Virus record (IMG/VR): IMGVR_UViG_3300045988_017695
Location: 1-5,120 of that record
Origin: a virus
Strand: one strand, 5' to 3'
DNA: 5,120 nt
In this document: positions 1,349 through 5,120 of the stretch, in pieces
Layout: each line of letters begins with the position of its first letter
Position numbering within the stretch: the stretch's first letter is position 1
Translations under genes and position numbers: made by a program
The notes under the pieces: generated by a model
The model's input: the letters and a program-made list of their open reading frames with translations, nothing else
The model's database searches: none
Told to the model about the DNA's origin: nothing

Positions 1349-1832
1349 TACCCAGTATACTCCGCATAATCGCATCGCCGCTAATCCTGGTTCACCCGTT
1401 AAGGTGCTTTACGGCGGTAAGTATGACGCGAACGGTCGTGTTATTCTTGAGAAGAAAGGTGAAGAGAATCTGTATGACTATATCCAGTCTTTTCGCGATT
1501 CGGTTGATCTCAACGTTATCCTCGCCCGCTTCTCCAATGGTGACGTGGAAGCCCTTAATAAGGCTCAAGGCTTTTATGCAGATGTGTCCGATTTTCCTAA
1601 GAATATGGCCGATGCGCTTAATCGTATCAATCAGGCCGAAGAGATGTTTAAGGCTCTTCCGCTTGAGATTCGCCAGAAGTTTGACTGTTCTTTTGAGCAG
1701 TTTTTAGCTCAGTCTGGTACTGATGATTGGTTGTCTAAGATGGGCTTTGAAAGCTCTGCGCCGGTAGAGTCCGAGACCCCATCTGTGAAGGTTGAGCCTG
1801 ATGTTGTAAAGGAGATCAAGAATGAATCGTAA
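1341..1832 (+). CDS. VP3: VP3-like internal scaffolding protein, 163 aa (MFDTQYTPHNRIAANPGSPVKVLYGG...)
   Basis: A 150-170 aa ORF directly upstream of and overlapping the major capsid gene, as in gokushoviruses. ATG at 1341 is preceded by GAAGGAGG (1321-1328). The track's GTG at 1332 lies only 3 nt from that SD and is unlikely. TAA stop at 1830-1832 overlaps the VP1 start. Confidence 0.55.
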   Translation: MFDTQYTPHNRIAANPGSPVKVLYGGKYDANGRVILEKKGEENLYDYIQSFRDSVDLNVILARFSNGDVEALNKAQGFYADVSDFPKNMADALNRINQAEEMFKALPLEIRQKFDCSFEQFLAQSGTDDWLSKMGFESSAPVESETPSVKVEPDVVKEIKNES

Positions 1833-3510
1833 TGTTGAATCGCATTTTGCGCTGAATCCCACTCGCATTGATATGTCTCGTTCGACGTTTGATCGTTCGT
1901 CTTCTGTCAAGACCTCTTTCAATGTCGGTGATATTGTCCCTTTCTTCCTCGAAGAGGTTCTTCCCGGCGATACGTTCAATGTACGTACTTCGAAAGTTGT
2001 GCGTATGCAGACTCTGCTTACACCGATGATGGACAATGTTTACCTTGATTCGTATTTTTTCTTTGTTCCTAACCGGCTTGTTTGGAATCACTGGAAGGAG
2101 TTTAACGGTGAAAACACTGAAAGCGCGTGGATACCCACTACTGAGTATTCTGTACCTCAGATTACTTCGCCTTCCGCTGGTTGGTCTGTTGGTACTCTTG
2201 CTGATTATTTCGGCTTGCCTACAGGTGTTGGCGGTCTGAGCGTGTCCGCTCTTCCGTTCCGTGCGTATGCTCTCGTTATGAACGAGTGGTTCCGCGATCA
2301 GAATTTGCAAGATCCGCTCGTTGTTCCGGTTGATGATGCTACTGTTGCCGGTGTGAATACTGGTAACTTTGTTACCGATTGTGCTAAAGGCGGTTTGCCT
2401 TATATCGCTGCCAAGTATCACGACTATTTCACGAGCTGTCTCCCCAGCCCGCAGAAAGGCCCTGATGTTACGTTAAAGGTTGCTTCTCAGGATGATTTGC
2501 CGGTTGTTACAAAAGCGGTTGATTCTCCTTCATCTTCTTTTGCTGAGGGTCTCCGTCTTGGTGTTCTTGGTTCTTCTAATTGGTCTGAAAATGGCGGTTC
2601 TACTGTTCTTGGTATGAATGGTACTTTTACTGGTACTCGACCTGGTTTTGTTACTGATACTTCCGGTATTTCCGGTGGTTCGCTTGGTAATTGGGCTGTT
2701 GCTCCGTCTAACCTTTGGGCTATCAATTCTGGCAATGCTGTTGTTGCTACCATTAACCAACTTCGTATGGCATTCCAGATTCAAAAGCTTTATGAGCGTG
2801 ATGCGCGTGGCGGTACTCGTTATATTGAGGTGCTCAAATCTCATTTCGGTGTGACTTCTCCTGATGCTCGCTTGCAGCGTCCCGAGTATCTCGGTGGTAA
2901 TCGTGTGCCGATCAACGTTAACCAAGTCATTCAGCAGTCCGGTACCGGTGCCGGTGCTGATACTCCGCAGGGTACTGTTGTCGGTATGTCTCAGACTACG
3001 GACTCTAACCATGATTTTATTAAGTCCTTTACTGAGCACGGTTATATCATCGGTGTTATGGTTGCTCGCTATGATCATACCTATCAGCAGGGTATTGAGC
3101 GTCATTGGTCTCGTAAGACGCGCTTTGATTACTATTGGCCGGTCTTTGCTAACATTGGCGAGCAGGCTGTGCTTAATAAGGAAATTTTTGCGCAGGGTAC
3201 CGCAAAGGACAATGAAGTTTTTGGCTATCAAGAAGCTTGGTCTGATTATCGTTATAAGCCTAATCGCGTAACTGGTGAAATGCGTTCTGCTTATGAACTG
3301 TCTCTTGATGTTTGGCATTTGGCGGACGATTATGAGAGTCTTCCGTCACTGTCTGATAGTTGGATTCGTGAGGATAAGAATACTGTTGATCGTGTTCTTG
3401 CTGTCAAGTCTTCTGTGTCTGACCAGCTTTTTGCTGATATCTATGTTTCTAACCGCGCTACACGTCCGATGCCGCTGTATTCCGTCCCCGGCCTTATTGA
3501 CCATCACTAA
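1822..3510 (+). CDS. VP1: Major capsid protein VP1 (Microviridae F-protein family), 562 aa
   Basis: The N-terminus (MNRNVESHFALNPTRIDMSRSTFDRSSSVKTSFNVGDIVPFFLEEVLPGDTF) matches the conserved gokushovirus VP1 signature (RSTFDRSH..KTTFNAG.L.P...EVLPGDTF). Also present are the conserved INQLRMAFQIQKLYERDARGGTRYIE block and FFFVPNRLVW. SD GGAG (1811-1814) precedes ATG 1822. Confidence 0.95.
   Translation: MNRNVESHFALNPTRIDMSRSTFDRSSSVKTSFNVGDIVPFFLEEVLPGDTFNVRTSKVVRMQTLLTPMMDNVYLDSYFFFVPNRLVWNHWKEFNGENTESAWIPTTEYSVPQITSPSAGWSVGTLADYFGLPTGVGGLSVSALPFRAYALVMNEWFRDQNLQDPLVVPVDDATVAGVNTGNFVTDCAKGGLPYIAAKYHDYFTSCLPSPQKGPDVTLKVASQDDLPVVTKAVDSPSSSFAEGLRLGVLGSSNWSENGGSTVLGMNGTFTGTRPGFVTDTSGISGGSLGNWAVAPSNLWAINSGNAVVATINQLRMAFQIQKLYERDARGGTRYIEVLKSHFGVTSPDARLQRPEYLGGNRVPINVNQVIQQSGTGAGADTPQGTVVGMSQTTDSNHDFIKSFTEHGYIIGVMVARYDHTYQQGIERHWSRKTRFDYYWPVFANIGEQAVLNKEIFAQGTAKDNEVFGYQEAWSDYRYKPNRVTGEMRSAYELSLDVWHLADDYESLPSLSDSWIREDKNTVDRVLAVKSSVSDQLFADIYVSNRATRPMPLYSVPGLIDHH
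2455..2750 (+). other. Ser/Gly/Thr-rich hypervariable insertion loop of VP1 (threefold 'mushroom' protrusion region)
   Basis: The stretch KGPDVTLKVASQDD...SSNWSENGGSTVLGMNGTFTGTRPGFVTDTSGISGGSLGNWAVAPSNLWAINSGNAVVAT is low-complexity and G/S/T/N-rich. It is flanked by conserved capsid blocks and sits where the gokushovirus VP1 variable loop is expected. Confidence 0.6.
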
Positions 3511-3523
3511 ATATCATGCTGTA

Positions 3524-3551
3524 GTGGGGGGCAGTTGCCCCCCACTTTTTT
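3524..3551 (+). terminator. Rho-independent terminator between VP1 and VP2: stem GTGGGGGGC (3524-3532), loop AGTT, stem GCCCCCCAC (3537-3545), then TTTTTT (3546-3551)
   Basis: A perfect 9-bp G/C-rich stem, a 4-nt loop and a T6 run lie 14 nt after the VP1 stop. This resembles the partial terminators after the capsid genes of phiX174. Confidence 0.55.
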
Positions 3552-3565
3552 GAAAGGAGTTTTAC

Positions 3566-4417
3566 ATGTCTTATTTTTCCGAGGCTTTGAATACTGGTGC
3601 GAATCAGATCGCACAAATGCAGGGTATTGCTCAAGCAAATAATGCTTGGTCTGCTGGACAGGCTCAAATACAGCGCGAATGGCAGGAACAGCAGAATGCT
3701 AAGGCTATGGCTTTTAATCAGAGCGAGGCCGCTAAGAATCGTAACTGGCAGGAAATGCTATCAAATACTGCTCATCAGCGTGAAGTGCGTGATCTTATGG
3801 CTGCTGGTCTTAATCCTGTTTTGTCAGCTATGAATGGCAATGGTGCTTCCGTTGGCTCTGGTGCTACTGCTCAAGGTGTTACTTCTCAAGGTGCTAAAGG
3901 TGAAACGGATACTTCCGCTAATGGTGCTATTGCTAATCTACTTGGGTCTATTCTTTCTGCTCAGACTCAAATAGAGGCCGCTAATATCAACGCTAAGACA
4001 CAGGAAGCCGTTGCTGATAAGTATACTGCTATGGAAAGAATTGTTTCTGAGATCGCCGCCAGTGCCTCCCGTTATGGTGCTGATACGAGCGCGTCTGCTT
4101 CTCGTTATCATTCTGATCGTAGTTATGAGGCCTCCCGTTATGGTTCCGACCGTTCGGCTGCTGCTTCTATGTTTGGTTCGTCTTTGGCTTCCTCTGCGTC
4201 TCGTTATGCGTCTGATCAGGCCGCGGCTGCTTCTCGTTACGGTTCTGATATGTCCTATAAGCAGCTTAATGATTTTGGACGTGGTGAAACTTCGTCTTTG
4301 ATCGGCATGATTGCTAATCGTTTACCCGGTATCCTTGATGCTGCTAATAAGCGTACTGGTTTCTTTGGTACTAAGAAGTTTGGTAAAGATAAAAATCGTG
4401 TTGGCGGTTTTAGGTGA
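3566..4417 (+). CDS. VP2: Minor capsid / DNA pilot protein VP2, 283 aa
   Basis: SD AAGGAG (3554-3559) lies 6 nt before the ATG. The N-terminal region ...EAAKNRNWQEMLSNTAHQREVRDLMAAGLNPVLS matches the conserved gokushovirus VP2 motif (QE.MSNTA.QR...D...AGLNP.L). The composition is Ala/Ser/Gln-rich, and the gene follows VP1. Confidence 0.85.
   Translation: MSYFSEALNTGANQIAQMQGIAQANNAWSAGQAQIQREWQEQQNAKAMAFNQSEAAKNRNWQEMLSNTAHQREVRDLMAAGLNPVLSAMNGNGASVGSGATAQGVTSQGAKGETDTSANGAIANLLGSILSAQTQIEAANINAKTQEAVADKYTAMERIVSEIAASASRYGADTSASASRYHSDRSYEASRYGSDRSAAASMFGSSLASSASRYASDQAAAASRYGSDMSYKQLNDFGRGETSSLIGMIANRLPGILDAANKRTGFFGTKKFGKDKNRVGGFR
4058..4255 (+). repeat. Six in-frame tandem 33-nt (11-aa) repeats inside VP2, consensus A-[AS]-A-S-R-Y-G-S-D-x-S
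   Basis: The six units are ASASRYGADTS, ASASRYHSDRS, YEASRYGSDRS, AAASMFGSSLA, SSASRYASDQA and AAASRYGSDMS. The nucleotide units differ by synonymous changes (for example tat/tac and gcc tcc/gct tct), so the repeat is old and conserved rather than recent. Confidence 0.85.
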
Positions 4418-4510
4418 GTTTTGATCTTGTCTTTGTGCATTTTGTCGGTTTTATCCGGTTGCCTGGTCAAGCGTTTTTTGTTTGAAATTAACAAAATTTC
4501 TTTTATAAAG

Positions 4511-4555
4511 GAAGCGAAGCGAGTCGCGCCCCTGCGCCAAGCTACGCTTCTTTTT
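4511..4555 (+). terminator. Terminator-like GC-rich hairpin downstream of VP2: arm GAAGCGAAGC (4511-4520) pairs with GCTACGCTTC (4541-4550) with 1 mismatch, inner GCGC/GCGC stem, then TTTTT (4551-4555)
   Basis: An imperfect inverted repeat followed by a T5 run lies about 95 nt after the VP2 stop. Confidence 0.4.
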
Positions 4556-4574
4556 GCACTCCTTGCCAAAATGG

Positions 4575-4596
4575 TATGCAGTCTCTTTTCTGCATA
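4575..4596. repeat. Small hairpin: TATGCAG (4575-4581), 8-nt loop, CTGCATA (4590-4596)
   Basis: A 7-bp perfect inverted repeat in the noncoding region. Confidence 0.35.
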
Positions 4597-4624
4597 AAAT
4601 CTCGGCTGCCGTATCGCATGCCGA

Positions 4625-4664
4625 ACTCGTGCCCATTACTCTTCTTGATGTAATGGGCACGAGT
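4625..4664. repeat. Perfect 15-bp inverted repeat (ACTCGTGCCCATTAC / GTAATGGGCACGAGT) with a 10-nt loop TCTTCTTGAT; candidate replication origin or primosome/packaging hairpin
   Basis: Arms are 4625-4639 and 4650-4664, the loop is 4640-4649. This is the longest perfect palindrome in the window. It lies in the 400-nt intergenic region about 155 nt upstream of rep. The loop contains CTTGAT. Confidence 0.8.
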
Positions 4665-4762
4665 GACACCAAGACACGCAAATTATCATTTACTACTTTA
4701 AAATAGCTATCTAAAATATACATATATCCTTGTATAAAATATTAAAACTAAAAAAAACTATA

Positions 4763-4791
4763 TTGACAAATATAAAATATTTTTTTATTAT
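4763..4791 (+). promoter_or_regulatory. Sigma70-type promoter for VP4: -35 TTGACA (4763-4768), 17-nt spacer, -10 TATTAT (4786-4791), embedded in a roughly 120-nt AT-rich tract (4685-4800) with an A8 run
   Basis: The -35 hexamer is consensus, the -10 matches 5 of 6 and the spacing is optimal. The predicted transcript start is about 4798-4800, just before the SD and GTG start of rep. Confidence 0.5.
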
Positions 4792-4803
4792 ATTAAATAT
4801 AAG

Positions 4804-4809
4804 TGAGGT
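4804..4809 (+). promoter_or_regulatory. Ribosome-binding site GAGGTG for VP4
   Basis: It lies 9 nt upstream of the in-frame GTG at 4819. The in-frame TGA at 4804-4806 closes the frame upstream, so GTG 4819 is the first possible start. Confidence 0.5.
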
Positions 4810-4818
4810 GTTTGCATT

Positions 4819-5120
4819 GTGTCTTGCTTTCATCCCATGTTGGCTGTCAGTACTGGCTTGAATTCTAACGGCAAGCGCGATATTAAATTCGTTTCTGGCC
4901 CCACTGAGTGGGAATCTTACCCGCCTAACGCCCGTCTCAAGATTCCTTGCGGTCGCTGTGTTGGTTGTCGTCTTGAGCGTTCCCGTCAATGGGCTAATCG
5001 CTGTATGCTTGAATTGCAGTACCATGAATCAAGTTATTTTGTTACGTTGACTTATGATGATGAGCATGTGCCTGTCACGTACTATTCTGAAAATGATGAC
5101 GGTGAAGCTCGTTCTGGTTT
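4819..5120 (+). CDS. VP4: Replication initiation protein VP4, N-terminal part (GTG start). It runs off the window end and continues at 3..719 (true junction after 5065).
   Basis: The translation MSCFHPMLAVSTGLNSNGKRDIKFVSGPTEWESYPPNARLKIPCGRCVGCRLERSRQWANRCMLELQYHESSYFVTLTYDDEH resembles conserved gokushovirus Rep N-termini (MACxHP..A). It carries a CxxCxxC motif (4948-4968) and RCR motif I FVTLTYDD (5038-5061). The ATG at 4837 is an alternative start but would drop the conserved SCFHP residues. Confidence 0.8.
   Translation, partial: MSCFHPMLAVSTGLNSNGKRDIKFVSGPTEWESYPPNARLKIPCGRCVGCRLERSRQWANRCMLELQYHESSYFVTLTYDDEHVPVTYYSENDDGEARSG
5066..5120. repeat. 55-nt terminal redundancy, an exact copy of 1..55, marking circular closure of a 5065-nt genome
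   Basis: Direct string identity. The repeat lies inside the rep coding sequence and preserves the reading frame. Confidence 0.95.

Follow-up and report, generated by a model that had tools for sequence, protein, structure and literature searches.

A conserved hairpin in the VP2-Rep intergenic region of a gokushovirus genome, with the phiX174 nick-site core in its loop, as a probable plus-strand origin of replication

The window, by which we mean the whole stretch of 5,120 nt that was analysed, contains a complete circular gokushovirus genome (Microviridae, Gokushovirinae) of 5,065 nt. Positions 1-55 are identical to positions 5066-5120, and it is this terminal identity of 55 nt that indicates one complete circle; the Rep gene reads in frame over the circular junction. 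All genes are on the + strand: Rep (VP4, 321 amino acids), with its 5′ part at 4819-5120 and its 3′ part, beyond the junction, at 3-719; a small basic J-like open reading frame (ORF) at 722-835; VP5 at 907-1158; the VP3 scaffold gene at 1332-1832; the VP1 capsid gene at 1822-3510; and the VP2 pilot gene at 3566-4417. Rep starts at the GTG codon at 4819 and is preceded by a GAGG Shine-Dalgarno sequence, both within 4803-4821. The unannotated ORF directly after Rep encodes a basic protein of 37 amino acids (MRKKTKPILDNKIFRRTAAHSKKINIDPKIFRGGIRL, 32% K+R) that matches phrog_10695 and ends in RGGIRL, similar to the arginine-rich small ORF located after VP2 in E. coli prophages, and it probably encodes a J/VP8-like DNA-binding protein. 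In the gap between VP1 and VP2 there is a textbook intrinsic terminator at 3523-3546 (+), consisting of AGTGGGGGGCA-gt-TGCCCCCCACT and then TTTTTT, and a comparable G-run hairpin was seen after VP1 in four relatives (L216, L222, L226, and L230).

By far the largest noncoding stretch is the VP2-Rep intergenic region (4418-4818, 401 nt), the entirety of which is unusually structured on the + strand (z = -5.4). An initial reading of the DNA without database searches (the sequence-only reading) had placed a candidate replication origin in this region, which it called the only large noncoding region; it is the largest, but not the only one, because a second noncoding region of 173 nt is present at 1159-1331. 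The AT-rich stretch that precedes Rep contains a sigma-70-like promoter sequence, TTGACA-17-TATTAT (4763-4791, +), with 11 of 12 consensus matches, which on this basis is likely the Rep promoter. Farther upstream, two additional hairpins are predicted within 4510-4606 on the + strand, one GC-rich at about 4510-4550 and the other at 4565-4606; these are kept only in close relatives, and they are candidates for complementary-strand priming. Short direct repeats of an AGCGA type were also seen upstream of the origin-like hairpin, as GAAGCGAAGCGAG in the window and as GCGAGCGCCAGCGAGCG in another clade (L002-type loci), and both the extra upstream hairpins and these repeats are conserved within clades only.

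The longest perfect hairpin, or inverted repeat, of the window is located at 4625-4664, between these upstream elements and the AT-rich stretch. The 5′ arm ACTCGTGCCCATTAC (4625-4639, +) and the 3′ arm GTAATGGGCACGAGT (4650-4664, +) are 15 bp in length and 100% complementary, and they enclose the 10-nt loop TCTTCTTGAT (4640-4649, +), which has a pyrimidine-rich 5′ part followed by the hexamer CTTGAT (4644-4649). At the 3′ foot of the stem is the sequence TGACACC (4664-4670, +), called the box hereafter, such that the 3′ arm forms a 14-nt spacer between the CTTGAT core and the box; the segment from the loop to the box reads TCTTCTTGATGTAATGGGCACGAGTGACACC. A second GACAC, read directly from the sequence, follows at 4673-4677 (+), 3 nt past the box (GACACcaaGACAC), and a GACAC-type repeat like that of the window is present in one relative (L004, GACACcaGACAC).

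The sequence-only reading had described a perfect 15-bp hairpin with CTTGAT in a 10-nt loop as the strongest structure of the genome, and this was borne out: the longest stem in 200 dinucleotide-preserving shuffles of the genome was 12 bp, and usually 7-8 bp, compared to the 15 bp observed. Folding of the region as single-stranded DNA, which had been suggested as a check, gave -18.0 kcal/mol for a segment of 53 nt, relative to -3.8 +/- 1.7 kcal/mol for shuffled sequences (z = -8.5). The hexamer displayed in the loop is, as had been recognized, identical to the core of the mapped phiX174 gpA site CAACTTG^ATA. It had also been correctly cautioned that the hexamer is insufficient as an argument by itself: there are 8 copies on both strands of the window compared to 4.0 +/- 2.0 expected, which is not significant. 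The copies listed at 1235-1240, 2044-2049, and 3304-3309 are present, although the one given as 4325-4330 is actually at 4334-4339. The longer pattern CTTGWT-N13-16-TGAC has a single occurrence in the window.

The hairpin is located 155 nt before the GTG at 4819, that is, upstream of a two-tyrosine rolling-circle Rep as had been proposed. The Rep protein contains a motif 1 (FVTLTY), an HUH motif (PHYHAIIF), and the sequence AYTARYIMKK, which provides the tyrosine pair Y192-x3-Y196, and it has profile matches to PF23343 and phrog_942. A BLASTP comparison to the phiX174 gpA protein yielded E = 1e-6, with an alignment that runs through motif 1 and the HUH motif, and as judged from these sequence matches the window Rep is a gpA homologue. 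The replicon that carries the hairpin therefore itself encodes an HUH initiator with catalytic tyrosines, as for this class of origins in general.

The conservation of the intergenic region was evaluated by a sensitive BLASTN search of deposited phage genomes. It was found that the hairpin segment is the only part of the region kept in distant gokushoviruses, with 84-93% identity over about 45-60 nt, and that this segment is always intergenic and never annotated. In a first alignment of these matches the outer stem covaried, the inner stem and the loop were conserved, and GTGACACC was invariant at the 3′ foot. Several ORFs extend across the hairpin (4554-4706 and others), and these were rejected as coding sequences because the loop is either 9 or 10 nt in length among near-identical relatives, and this difference of 1 nt would shift any reading frame.

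A viral contig collection was then scanned with two patterns, one anchored on the loop and the other on the 3′ box without any constraint on the loop, and together these scans yielded about 70 distinct modules (a hairpin with its flanking box). Use of the bare 14-mer CTTGATGTAATGGG as a probe of the collection gave mostly chance matches in large contigs, such that context filtering was needed. In some modules with short stems (L023, L058, L110, L150, and L151), GTAAT or TAAT and GAGT were kept though unpaired. Because these sequences are retained in the absence of pairing, the conserved unit is linear in nature, namely the motif CTTG(A/T)T-N14/15-TGACAC(C), together with a 5′ arm that is complementary to the spacer. 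The suggestion that the GTAAT following the core echoes the ATTAAT of phiX174 is weak; GTAAT is kept in many lineages, but it is missing in the Chlamydia phages.

Covariation was quantified in a structure-neutral MAFFT alignment (A2) of 36 modules that were non-redundant by stem. Both sides change in 15 of the 18 pairs, and the number of doubly changed cells was 112, compared to 41 +/- 4.4 in 500 shuffles, all of which remained below 112, and to 25-48 when the partners were slid by 1-3 columns. RNAalifold independently recovered the central helix of 9 pairs from this alignment, all 9 of which are compensatory. The invariant columns are the C, T, G, and last T of the CTTGAT core and the T, G, and A of the box, the remaining C, A, and C of which are at least 90% conserved; the spacer between core and box is 14 nt in 27 modules and 15 nt in the other 9. 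The sequence of the 5′ arm is therefore free to vary as long as it is paired with the 3′ arm, and the pyrimidine-rich 5′ part of the loop varies in length, whereas the core is invariant. These were the properties, compensatory change in the stem and conservation of the loop among relatives, that the sequence-only reading had proposed to look for, and both are clearly present; a stem preserved by compensatory change around an invariant loop core is what is seen in this class of origins.

The distribution of the motif was assessed in a motif-unbiased sample of 80 loci picked by similarity to the window Rep alone (98-40% identity). The bipartite motif was present on the Rep strand in 54 of these loci, compared to about 4.7 expected, and among the contigs with terminal repeats (complete circles) it was on the Rep strand in 21 of 22, with the motif inverted in the 22nd. 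Of the 58 loci with the motif, 54 have it in the orientation of the genes and 4 have it inverted. Most of the motif-less contigs run from a point shortly before Rep to one beyond VP2 (for example L216, L222, L224, L226, and L230), and the contigs that lack both the motif and terminal repeats appear to be broken within the intergenic region. Assembly may be interrupted at the perfect inverted repeat, and in this way the hairpin may account for many contigs breaking in this region.

The four inverted modules are opposite in orientation to Rep, VP1, and VP2, and are located at 1517-1553 in L272, at 299-343 in L281 (and similarly in L280), and at 3016-3056 in L282, where the module is directly upstream of VP1. 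One of these contigs, L281, represents a complete circle. The inversion includes the flanks in L272 and L282, whereas the TGAC of L280 and L281 is inside a symmetrical stem.

A role of the hairpin at the level of RNA, as a leaky terminator or an mRNA-stabilising structure that ends the VP2 message, would agree with its location downstream of VP2, with the great stability that the RNA hairpin would have, and with the intergenic hairpins that serve as terminators in phiX174 (bioRxiv 10.64898/2026.07.25.740675). An intrinsic terminator was ruled out, because the 3′ flank GACACCAAGACACG has no T-run after the stem and the hairpin was absent from the output of a terminator and promoter scan. A canonical terminator already follows VP1 (3523-3546), conservation of the loop sequence across a subfamily is not a feature of terminators, and the inverted modules would show a different loop in the RNA. 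A search of Rfam on both strands at a permissive threshold gave only a chance match below threshold, to mir-3910 at 4613-4682 (-) with 21.9 bits relative to a threshold of 95 (E = 0.82), which we regard as a generic artefact of long hairpins. A function of this kind is thus considered very improbable.

The classical cultured gokushoviruses Chp2, phiMH2K, and SpV4 were also inspected, such that all classical genera are covered, and in each of them the strongest perfect hairpin of the genome was found to show ACTTG(A/T)T in its loop. The Chp2 module is CTAGCGTATAACAG-tctaCTTGAT-CTGTTATACGCTAG and contains the sole CTTGAT of the Chp2 + strand; that of phiMH2K is AGTTCGGCTAC-ggaccctaCTTGTTgtaa-GTAGCCGAACT; and that of SpV4 is TGGGGCATAT-attaCTTGTTata-ATATGCCCCA-TTGACGAC, which has the form CTTGTT-N14-TGACGAC. 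The strongest hairpin agrees in two phiMH2K relatives and two further Chlamydia phages (L287-L290), and the latter two have compensatory stem changes without a TGAC box, which is not conserved in the Chlamydia phages but is found 14-15 nt beyond the core in most lineages. The relatives of the Chp2 and phiMH2K Rep proteins came from single-protein searches that gave 2-3 loci each, such that both of these lineages are thinly sampled.

A similar module, CCTGGCACAGT-gccctaCTTGATgta-ACTGTGCCAGG-TGACACC, is the strongest hairpin of the gokushovirus prophages in complete E. coli genomes, where it is located between VP3 and VP1. When a weight matrix of the gokushovirus modules was used, with Chp2 and SpV4 each left out of training, the hairpin ranked first genome-wide in Chp2, SpV4, phiMH2K, and the E. 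coli prophage locus. The prophages also bear on whether the hairpin might serve in attachment or recombination, for instance as a dif-like site for XerCD integration, because integration at dif by way of a noncoding phage motif is known for some gokushoviruses (PMC7062461) and the hairpin is a noncoding inverted repeat. However, the dif motifs at the borders of the E. coli prophages are separate from the internal hairpin, the perfect 15-bp arms and 10-nt loop are unlike dif (28 bp, with two 11-bp arms and a 6-bp spacer), and the E. coli dif sequence had no match in the window with up to 3 mismatches. We therefore assign a negligible probability to this idea.

Bacterial and archaeal assemblies were searched with a 17-base form of the motif, and 104 matches were obtained compared to about 69 expected by chance. 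A hairpin is present in 35 of these matches, and 29 of the 35 adjoin gokushovirus VP1 or Rep genes, whereas none of the 69 hairpin-less matches does. The combination of hairpin and motif was specific to gokushoviruses in bacterial assemblies and could be used in annotation. The bins and isolates with a module include Sutterella, Veillonella, Phascolarctobacterium, Peptostreptococcaceae, Intestinirhabdus, Alphaproteobacteria, and Prochlorococcus; the exact window-type module was not found in bacterial genome representatives. The occurrence of hairpin-bearing bins in several phyla argues for recognition by a phage protein as opposed to a host protein.

In some of these assemblies the hairpin and gokushovirus genes are situated inside large bacterial contigs, as in the Phascolarctobacterium faecium strain DSM 14760 (L311, a contig of 797 kb) and Intestinirhabdus alba (L354), and hairpin-bearing gokushovirus gene sets within large contigs were also seen in a Sutterella bin (L291) and a Peptostreptococcaceae bin (L313). 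This suggests that there are integrated prophages beyond the Enterobacteriaceae and Bacteroidetes cases in the literature surveyed.

The range of hosts is pertinent to the possibility that the hairpin is a complementary-strand (minus) origin that is read by host RNA polymerase, primase, or PriA, either alone or in addition to being nicked. Elements comparable to such an origin are the F-G hairpin (PriA site) of phiX174, the oric of G4, and the sso of plasmids. A site of this type is required by all microviruses, and there is a stable hairpin (-18 kcal/mol, z = -8.5) on the packaged strand, assuming that the gene strand is packaged. Furthermore, the hairpin is the only strong intergenic one in the small E. 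coli prophages, and a single cassette with both functions would tolerate inversion of the whole module more easily. The conserved hairpins between Cap and Rep of tiny microviruses were tentatively read in this way in 2022 (PMC9865509). However, host-read sites usually track the host, whereas the loop core is common to phages or prophages of Chlamydia, Bdellovibrio, Spiroplasma, Enterobacteriaceae, Negativicutes, Alphaproteobacteria, and others, and this conservation that does not follow the host makes a host-read complementary-strand origin less likely. In addition, the conserved part is a short loop identical to a known Rep cleavage core with a stem that is free to vary, and other hairpins in the intergenic region of the window could serve for priming. 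We consider a minus origin to be unlikely, although a dual role in nicking and priming is conceivable. The sequence-only reading had offered a complementary-strand origin and a packaging signal as alternatives to a nick site, and both are less well supported than the nick site.

A packaging or strand-switch signal belongs to a broader proposal, namely that the hairpin is bound but left uncut by another phage protein, such as VP5 (the analogue of protein C) or the J-like protein, or that it is an operator for Rep. In favour of this proposal, the hairpin is about 100 nt upstream of the promoter-like site of Rep, and protein C of phiX174 is active at the origin complex (bioRxiv 10.64898/2026.07.25.740675). 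The position of the module relative to Rep is variable: among 53 loci it is 90-530 nt upstream of Rep in 35, but in 17 it is located at a distance, in the interval from Rep to VP1, and it is also distant in the E. coli prophages, which is at odds with a Rep operator. A covarying stem with an invariant, asymmetric loop points to a single-stranded target and not to a duplex operator, the identity to the gpA core would have to be a coincidence, and if packaging is tied to Rep, as it is in phiX174, no separate packaging signal would be needed. Accordingly, we view an uncut protein-binding site as quite improbable.

Taken together, the stem that is paired but free in sequence, the invariant asymmetric loop, the adjacent box, the single copy in the window, and the core identical to that of the gpA site favour the interpretation that the hairpin is a plus-strand (viral-strand) origin of rolling-circle replication, nicked by Rep (VP4) between G4647 and A4648. 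We regard this interpretation, which is based on sequence comparisons, as probable. The position of the nick is predicted by analogy with phiX174, in the record of which the viral-strand origin is annotated at 4306 within CAACTTGATATTAATAACACTATAGACCAC, and where cleavage by gpA occurs between G4305 and A4306 via Tyr343 and Tyr347, as restated recently (bioRxiv 10.64898/2026.07.25.740675). In the same study, synonymous changes in the gene A codons Q107 to D115 were found to be detrimental; counted from the first base of gene A at 3981, they correspond to 4299-4325, which includes both CTTGAT and the GAC located 14 nt on. The general scheme of rolling-circle origins places a binding site beside the nick site (PMC5714925), and the TGACACC box is, from its position and conservation, a candidate for the Rep binding ('key') sequence. 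The doubled GACAC of the window (4665-4677) may function in an iteron-like manner in Rep binding, as a lineage-specific feature and not a general one.

A mechanism may be envisaged in which the 15-bp inverted repeat extrudes or melts in the supercoiled double-stranded replicative form, such that the loop would be exposed as single-stranded DNA and Rep would dock on the conserved 3′ half, CTTGAT-N14-TGACACC. Either Y192 or Y196 would then attack the bond between G4647 and A4648, leaving Rep linked to the 5′ end, and the OH of G4647 would prime leading-strand synthesis by host enzymes. After one round of synthesis, the regenerated site, refolded on the displaced strand, would be cut by the second tyrosine, and the old strand would be sealed into a circle, probably with coupled packaging as in phiX174. 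On the basis of this comparison of sequences, it is in the loop of a hairpin that the core would become exposed in gokushoviruses, whereas phiX174 relies on an AT-rich spacer within gene A.

The inverted modules (L272, L280, L281, and L282) fit a plus-strand origin only if the antisense strand is packaged. It may be that antisense packaging occurs in these genomes, that inversion is tolerated for another reason, or that the origin model is incomplete. A more far-reaching version would be that the module is a portable origin cassette of all Gokushovirinae, which shares with the phiX174 origin a common ancestor consisting of a nick core and, 14-15 nt on, an xGAC box, can be moved among intergenic regions and inverted, and sets the packaged strand by its orientation, such that L272, L280/L281, and L282 package the antisense strand, and which may also prime the complementary strand; we put this forward as a speculation that is rather doubtful.

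In gut and aquatic viromes, gokushoviruses count among the most abundant phages with single-stranded DNA. Our survey of the main open papers on gokushoviruses yielded no description of a gokushovirus origin or of this hairpin, and apparently the replication nick site of a gokushovirus has never been mapped. A rolling-circle origin would be an element of a known kind and unsurprising in principle, but it would define a site so far unmapped in a very abundant phage group. If the hairpin is the origin, it would provide a natural point from which to number gokushovirus genomes and prophages, as well as a marker sequence by which to recognize them, and it could make possible gokushovirus phagemids or the production of single-stranded DNA in vivo. 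It would also allow a direct comparison of homologous initiators for which the same core is exposed by a hairpin (gokushoviruses) or by an AT-rich stretch (phiX174). Because the E. coli gokushovirus prophages, which are relatives of the cultivable EC6098, carry the module, the question of the origin is open to standard genetics.

Among the closest known counterparts is the 30-nt origin of phiX174 and the Bullavirinae, CAACTTG^ATATTAATAACACTATAGACCAC, which is cut by gpA and has the same core hexamer as the window. Of the phiX174 recognition decamer CAACTTG^ATA, 7 of 10 positions match in the window and 8 of 10 in Chp2, and a GAC is present 14 nt after the hexamer in both, within TGACACC in the window and AGACCAC in phiX174. 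The initiators are homologous proteins with the HUH and Y-x3-Y motifs, and both elements are single-copy. In contrast, the phiX174 origin is inside gene A and lacks a hairpin, whereas the element of the window is intergenic with a 15-bp hairpin, and the spacer is AT-rich in phiX174 but is the GC-rich 3′ stem arm in the window. The gokushovirus module also shifts between intergenic regions and is occasionally inverted, unlike the phiX174 origin. When the gokushovirus matrix was applied to phiX174, the origin was 8th of 10,772 positions with the full matrix, 4th with the core plus box, and joint 1st only with the core plus TGAC. Because the phiX174 origin is not at the top for the gokushovirus matrix, we do not claim homology of the two origins over their full length, and the likeness in sequence beyond CTTGAT and a GAC at the same offset is modest.

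The double-strand origins of pC194 and pUB110 (Rep_1 plasmids), which are plasmids with copy control, contain CTTGATA, and the nick of pC194 falls at CTTG^ATA, according to the literature of the 1980s. The minimal origin of pC194 contains ...TTCTTATCTTGATAATAAGGGTAAC..., compared to TACTCTTCTTGATGTAATGGGCACG in the window (PMC7072734), and in both there is a pyrimidine run, CTTGAT, and a GGG six positions later; likewise, the pC194 origin sequence CTTGATAATAAGGG is close to CTTGATGTAATGGG of the window (PMC7072734). The Rep of the pC194 family uses one tyrosine and a glutamate (PMC5703833), unlike the two tyrosines of the window Rep, and the palindrome of pC194 is 3′ of the core, which is outside of the loop, whereas the core of the window is inside the loop.

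In pT181, pMV158, geminiviruses, circoviruses, and nanoviruses, the nick site is in the loop of a hairpin, with a variable stem sequence and a conserved loop, as in the window. However, the Rep families and loops of these replicons are unrelated to those of the window (for example, the nonanucleotide TAATATT^AC), and the likeness is therefore one of the way of working and not of descent. Within the Microviridae, conserved hairpins between Cap and Rep that have compensatory stems and a conserved loop have been described in the reekeekeeviruses and roodoodooviruses; minus-strand priming was suggested tentatively, and the function was left open (PMC9865509). These viruses belong to different subfamilies and no link to the gpA core was reported for their hairpins (PMC9865509).
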